Of a stretch of 31,052 nt of DNA, positions 12,790 through 12,855 are shown one piece after another (position 1 is the stretch's first letter; each line of letters begins with the position of its first letter). The DNA is from a virus. The notes beneath the pieces were generated by a model, which ran no database searches, was not told the DNA's origin, and saw only the letters and a program-made list of their open reading frames with translations. Location: UHGV virus genome UHGV-0144805. The stretch is one strand, 5' to 3'. The position numbers and the translations under genes are program-made.

Positions 12790-12855
12790 ATTGCTCTAAT
12801 AATTCCATATTTTTAAAACGTGATGTACACTCATCACGTTTTTTATTAGAGCAAT
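12790..12855. promoter_or_regulatory. Two inverted C1-operator-like 17-mers (12790-12806 +, 12839-12855 -) flanking a terminator hairpin (12815-12844)
   Basis: ATTGCTCTAATAATTCC and reverse complement of ATTGCTCTAATAAAAAA; between them aaaACGTGATGtacactCATCACGTttttt. Confidence 0.55.

Follow-up and report, generated by a model that had tools for sequence, protein, structure and literature searches.

A C1 operator pair with a candidate terminator hairpin between the pmgN-pmgQ and pmgR-pmgS operons of a P1/P7-type phage-plasmid

The locus

The virus genome UHGV-0144805, 31,052 nucleotides (nt) of which were analysed (the window), is DNA of a P1/P7-type phage-plasmid. With 3 kb of DNA surrounding the site considered here as the query, identity to SJ46, P7 and P1 is 98.7-99.2%, and over the 111 base pairs (bp) at 12770-12880 it reaches 100% for phages P1 and P7. 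The site is a 66-bp element lying between the stop codon of pmgQ and the start codon of pmgR and, judged by this identity, it is the known C1 operator pair of P1 and P7, OpmgRa and OpmgRb, which separates the pmgN-pmgQ operon from the pmgR-pmgS operon. In the P1 record (AF234172) each of its two 17-mers is annotated as a "monovalent C1-controlled operator" with the protein_bind entry "phage repressor C1"; OpmgRa is described there as controlling the expression of pmgR and pmgS, and a predicted promoter, PpmgR, is also given. The P7 record (AF503408) annotates both sites for the phage repressor C1, as Op(sht[a]) and Op(sht[b]), and in both phages the sites have the same sequence, position and orientation as here. 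Since the operator pair is identical to these annotated sites, the finding is in its core not new. The present reading differs from the two records in that they have no terminator between the operators, and in that they place the -10 element in the 5' arm of a hairpin that we describe below and not in its loop. The locus comprises the following features.

12087..12788, + strand: pmgQ (hdmD in P7), with which the upstream pmgN-pmgQ operon ends; its stop codon, TAA, is at 12786-12788 (open reading frame list, P1/P7 annotation)
12790..12806, + strand: OpmgRa (formerly Op86a), C1 operator, ATTGCTCTAATAATTCC (consensus match, P1/P7 annotation, identical DNA)
12815..12842, + strand: hairpin, with 5' arm AAAACGTGATG at 12815-12825, loop TACACT at 12826-12831 and 3' arm CATCACGTTTT at 12832-12842
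12839..12844, + strand: run of six T directly 3' of the G-C core of the stem, which doubles as the AT-rich end of operator b
12839..12855, - strand: OpmgRb (formerly Op86b), C1 operator, ATTGCTCTAATAAAAAA (consensus match, P1/P7 annotation, identical DNA)
12860..12865, + strand: Shine-Dalgarno-like AAGGTG, 4 nt 5' of the pmgR start codon (read from the sequence)
12870..13088, + strand: pmgR, start codon at 12870 (open reading frame list, P1/P7 annotation, PMC9024508)
13090..14352, + strand: pmgS (shtB in P7), 420 amino acids, second gene of the controlled operon (open reading frame list, P1/P7 annotation)
14372..14400, + strand: strong terminator-like hairpin just 3' of pmgS, with an 11-bp stem (-15.8 kcal/mol) followed by eight T

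From the pmgQ stop codon to the pmgR start codon the DNA reads ATTGCTCTAATAATTCC-ATATTTTT-AAAACGTGATG-TACACT-CATCACGTTTT-TTATTAGAGCAAT.

The operators

P1 carries 22 dispersed C1 operators with an asymmetric consensus, and the corepressor Lxc strengthens the binding of C1 (PMC8546580). The initial annotation of the window had pointed to two operator-like 17-mers in opposite orientation, 33 bp apart. Both are present, each with three mismatches (14/17) to the C1 operator consensus ATTGCTCTAATAAATTT, and 32 bp lie between them, the figure of 33 being obtained when the distance is counted from the end of one to the start of the other. The 12-nt core TTGCTCTAATAA is perfect in both, and the outer arms make up an inverted repeat of 13 nt without mismatch. 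Such matches are rare by chance: the window as a whole holds six matches to the consensus against 0.12 expected, and five to the core against 0.16 expected. The other copies coincide with the annotated operators Oppp, OpmgT and Olpa. That C1 would bind both 17-mers is taken from the annotation of the P1 and P7 records.

For comparison we assembled 82 P1-type loci and eight divergent lineages (PmgS 53-100% identical). A scan of a genome collection with the PmgS alignment gave two near-identical loci and a scan of viral genomes gave 80, all 99-100% identical; the near-identical P1-type loci are of use only for variation within the group. Among the 82 loci, variation per site per locus is 0.001-0.002 in the operators and the hairpin loop, 0.007-0.009 in the stem arms, 0.027 at the 3' end of pmgQ and 0.038 in the 14 nt between operator b and the ATG. 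At a larger distance, the two operator cores are offset by 52 bp in each of the 10 lineages. This offset is kept even in lineages L089 and L091, where an additional base on the left side of the hairpin and a missing one on the right side shift it by 1 nt. Unlike this fixed offset, the distance between operator b and the ATG varies between 11 and 17 nt among lineages.

By their sequence and its evolution, the outer arms are two independent protein-binding sites and not one RNA stem, because the motif occurs singly elsewhere and because of changes in two of the lineages. In L095 both arms carry TTGTTC, and so does a separate operator 2 kb away, the equivalent of Op88, whereas in L089 the arms have diverged independently (TTACTCTAATAA and TTGCTCTAATCA), with no compensation between them. 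The concerted change in L095 suggests a C1 repressor of shifted specificity. In coordinates of this Salmonella lineage, the operator variant TTGTTCTAATAA is seen at all three operators of the locus (2700-2711, 2752-2763 and 4841-4852).

Multiple C1 sites at one promoter are familiar from P1, which has bivalent operators as well as C1-mediated looping at Op99. The pair described here shares with these the presence of more than one C1 site per promoter, but its sites lie 32 bp apart and do not overlap. It does not have the overlapping sites in an imperfect palindrome by which bivalent operators are recognised, and each of its sites is called monovalent in both records. The initial annotation had also suggested that the paired operators could permit cooperative binding or looping, and for this the fixed 52-bp offset is the one hint.

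A conserved hairpin between the operators

The hairpin starts 27 nt 3' of the pmgQ stop codon. The initial annotation had described an 8-bp GC-containing hairpin with a T run; this corresponds to the core ACGTGATG/CATCACGT, with four G-C pairs, of a stem that extends to 11 bp with 100% complementarity around a 6-nt loop. The extended stem has an RNA folding energy of -13.4 kcal/mol (z = -5.0, with none of 200 shuffles as good) and the core stem one of -8.5 kcal/mol. The operators had also been said to enclose the hairpin and the T run. The hairpin does begin and for the most part lie between them, whereas the T run and the last four pairs of the stem overlap operator b. None of the 20 phage records matching the site annotates a hairpin or a terminator here, and a search of Rfam returned only hits at the level of chance.

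The stem is retained across eight divergent lineages in spite of changes in its sequence, as can be seen from its arms.

P1 type: 5' AAAACGTGATG, 3' CATCACGTTTT
Salmonella type: 5' AAAACATGGTG, 3' CACCATGTTTT
JK004: 5' GAAGCATGGTG, 3' CGCCATGTTTT
L095: 5' GAAGCGTGGTG, 3' CACCATGCTTT
L089: 5' AGGTGTGGTG, 3' CGCCACATCT

Five of the 11 pairs have been altered on both sides, that is, by compensatory substitution. Over 19 distinct sequences 95.7% of the cells are paired, against 38-72% in controls in which the partner was slid, and the covariation score exceeds that of all 500 shuffles. The pairing is also strand-specific, with 22 G.U cells against five A.C cells, and with 95.7% of cells paired on the + strand against 87.6% on the - strand. 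On these comparative grounds the hairpin is a real RNA structure of the + strand, and it is under selection. Five to six U stand directly 3' of the stem in six of the eight lineages. In lineage L093 the 5' arm has moved by 3 nt while the 3' arm still adjoins the T run, and the homologue in this lineage is called by a simple terminator scan.

Because the hairpin lies shortly 3' of the pmgQ stop codon, is followed by a U run, shows compensatory substitutions and has G.U pairs specific to the + strand, the most economical reading is that hairpin and U run are likely to be the intrinsic terminator of the pmgN-pmgQ operon. The usual marks of such a terminator are found: a G+C-containing stem-loop and a U run, located on the coding strand after a stop codon, with pairing kept in evolution.

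The promoter of pmgR and pmgS

Two promoters on the + strand can be drawn within the element.

12791..12819, + strand: PpmgR as predicted in the P1 record, with -35 TTGCTC at 12791-12796, a 17-bp spacer and -10 TAAAAC at 12814-12819
12804..12831, + strand: alternative promoter proposed here, with -35 TCCATA at 12804-12809 (operator positions 15-20), a 16-bp spacer and -10 TACACT, the hairpin loop, at 12826-12831

The annotated -10 lacks its final T in every lineage, and in the relatives it becomes TGAAGC, TGCGGC, TAAAGG or TTAAGG, with scores of 4-5/12. Two variants found within the P1 type, TGAAAC and TAAAGC, keep the stem paired through G.U but would damage this -10. The promoter with its -10 in the loop has 7/12 sigma-70 matches in the window, 8/12 in the Salmonella type and 9/12 in other lineages, and a promoter scan finds it at the same position in four of four divergent lineages. 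The loop has the form TAnnnT, in which positions 1, 2 and 6 (T, A and T) are invariant across lineages.

The P1 operator Olpa (Op94) and its promoter Plpa (P94) offer a precedent for this geometry. There, too, the -35 begins at operator position 15 and is separated by a 16-bp spacer from the -10, which is of the TATTAT type; the P1 record enters Plpa as a sigma-70 promoter and does not qualify it as "predicted". Plpa is unlike the PpmgR locus in having a single operator; it lacks a second site at +1, and its -10 is not surrounded by a hairpin. Taken from the sequence comparison, the -10 of PpmgR in the reference annotation is probably misplaced and would belong in the hairpin loop. Transcription would then most likely start near 12838, with operator a over the -35 and operator b over positions +2 to +18. 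In either promoter model the start lies inside or after the hairpin, and pmgR transcripts therefore cannot form the terminator. A leftward promoter on the - strand was a hit in two relatives; it has no counterpart in the window and was taken as chance in AT-rich DNA.

Expression across the junction

Published RNA sequencing (RNA-seq) of phage P1vir (PMC8201110, Table S1) reports log fold changes at the level of whole genes, which cannot resolve termination. Ten minutes into infection of the wild type host the values are 6.95-7.39 for pmgO-pmgQ, 9.02 for pmgR and 9.99 for pmgS, and in a dksA host they are 6.09-6.63, 9.00 and 9.09, respectively (PMC8201110). Early expression thus jumps 4-8-fold at the pmgQ/pmgR junction. 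By 30 min pmgQ, pmgR and pmgS have reached 11.66, 10.81 and 11.70 in the wild type and 11.23, 10.44 and 10.59 in the dksA host (PMC8201110). The increase between the two time points is 4.3-5.0 units for the upstream genes but only 1.5-1.8 for pmgR and pmgS (PMC8201110). The early jump together with the smaller later rise indicates a separate, early-active promoter at the junction, and pmgR-pmgS is an early transcription unit of its own. That a C1-type repressor would silence a downstream promoter, as put forward in the initial annotation, agrees with both the annotated operators and this separate early unit.

The genes pmgR, pmgS and pmgT are among the most induced P1 genes at 10 min, with values of 9.0-10.0 against 3-5 for late structural genes (PMC8201110). 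They are labelled "putative morphogenetic" yet behave as early genes.

Knockdowns by CRISPR interference (CRISPRi) of pmgO through pmgQ were harmless, as was that of the essential pmgR (PMC10695390). Since even the knockdown of an essential gene had no effect, these data are uninformative on read-through from the upstream operon.

A model for the element and its alternatives

We consider it fairly probable that the element as a whole is explained by the known C1 operator pair, a terminator hairpin and an internal promoter for pmgR, all within 66 bp. According to this model, the hairpin and the U run would terminate transcripts arriving from pmgQ. The pmgR promoter would lie within the same 66 bp, the 3' end of operator a most probably supplying its -35 and the hairpin loop its -10, with a start near 12838. 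Its transcripts, beginning in or after the hairpin, would escape termination. In a lysogen, C1 aided by Lxc would occupy both operators and shut this promoter, and C1 bound at both would probably also block read-through from upstream.

Several observations weigh against this model. A consensus terminator scan makes no call at 12815-12842 in the window, which we attribute to the scan extending the stem into the T run. The U run is not kept in all relatives that have the hairpin, its place being taken in L089 and L091 by the tail TTGATTAG. Both candidate promoters score 7/12 in the window and the promoter scan calls neither. Lastly, pmgS (11.70) is level with pmgQ (11.66) at 30 min in the wild type, so that read-through could be high. 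The termination of the upstream operon claimed in the initial annotation is accordingly upheld only indirectly: position after the pmgQ stop, U run, covariation and + strand G.U pairs speak for it, and the two lineages without a U run, along with expression values that do not resolve termination, leave it at the strength of a likely reading.

Two of these points would suit a hairpin that is not a terminator but has another + strand role at the 3' end of the pmgQ mRNA, such as protection from 3' exonucleases or a processing site, with operators and promoter as annotated. L089 and L091 do conserve a hairpin of 10-11 bp without a U run, and pmgS and pmgQ stand level at 30 min in the wild type. 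We nevertheless hold this to be unlikely, given the U run directly 3' of the stem in most lineages, the 3' arm that stayed at the U run in L093 when the 5' arm moved, and the dksA host, in which the downstream genes are 0.6-0.8 log units below pmgQ at 30 min. The promoter, in turn, could be that of the P1 record, starting near 12826, with the loop hexamer conserved by chance or by constraints on the loop. This has behind it the P1 genome annotation itself and a score equal to that of the alternative in the window; it appears rather improbable in view of the -10 that lacks its final T throughout and degenerates in the relatives, and of the P1-type variants that spare the stem at the cost of the -10.

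It may further be asked whether the entire 66-nt inverted repeat acts as a single long hairpin of RNA or DNA, be it an RNase III site, a cruciform or the like, instead of two protein sites. The region does fold as one structure (-26.9 kcal/mol, z = -9.3). The arm sequence is, against this, that of the dispersed C1 operator, found in single copies elsewhere; the arms of L089 have diverged without compensation, and the change in L095 is common to an unpaired third operator. We regard a single long hairpin as very improbable.

Distant relatives and related systems

In a P1-like plasmid of Citrobacter freundii (NZ_CP056338.1, lineages L101/L102), the C1 homologue encoded at 25947-26807 shares only 29% identity with the P1 type (E = 7e-31). 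The dispersed operator-like motif of this plasmid, CAGAnnATACTAATTT, is also a different one; its core ATACTAAT occurs in 17 copies against 3.5 expected, mostly between annotated genes. A convergent pair of this motif (49242 on the + strand and 49272 on the - strand) stands directly 5' of the pmgR homologue; the two are 22 bp closer to each other and have no hairpin between them. Pantoea (L088) and lineage L099 likewise have a convergent operator pair without a hairpin before the pmgR homologue. Since the distance between operator cores differs among the three distant plasmids (31 to 35 bp), we make no claim of helical phasing. This distribution suggests that the two-operator arrangement may be ancestral and that a hairpin of ~22 nt was added later, in the P1/P7/JK004/Salmonella group.

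Coupled promoter-terminator modules of bacteria, as described in a preprint (bioRxiv 10.64898/2026.08.19.745784), resemble the element in that the terminator of one unit and the promoter of the next share a short piece of DNA. More tentatively, the 66 bp might be viewed as a conserved boundary cassette, in which the terminator hairpin of the + strand encloses the -10 of the next promoter, the loop being the -10, and is flanked by convergent repressor sites at a 52-bp offset; we think this possible but rather doubtful.

Neighbouring features

Pfam gave nothing informative in PmgQ, PmgR or PmgS. The hairpin at 14372-14400, which has no annotation in the P1 or P7 records, is likely, from its position and form, to be the end of the pmgR-pmgS unit. 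In the record of phage vB_EcoM-Ro157c2YLVW (MH160767.1 / NC_050153.1) the region matching 12870-13085 is labelled "L: RNA-directed RNA polymerase L", and this label on the pmgR region looks like an annotation error. Within the 3' end of pmgQ, at 12757-12775, a T run is flanked by the arms of a short inverted repeat, GCTC...GAGC, for which no function is suggested; base 12765 is G in some P1-type loci and A in others. Elsewhere in the window, an open reading frame of 286 amino acids at 27339-28199 on the - strand encodes a class A beta-lactamase (Pfam PF13354, E = 2e-41), indicating that the stretch comes from a P7-like phage-plasmid with a resistance gene.

Significance

The operators entered the P1 and P7 records two decades ago, and in this respect little new knowledge is added. 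What is new beyond the annotation is modest: evolutionary support for a terminator, an invariant spacing of the operators, and a -10 that probably belongs in the hairpin loop. The terminator candidate, unannotated but supported by evolution, separates a dispensable accessory operon from the essential pmgR. If the cassette view is true, one piece of DNA would both end an operon and start its successor, whose transcripts would escape the terminator, the whole being silenced by a single repressor. The element also offers a compact natural module of repressible promoter and candidate terminator that may be reusable.
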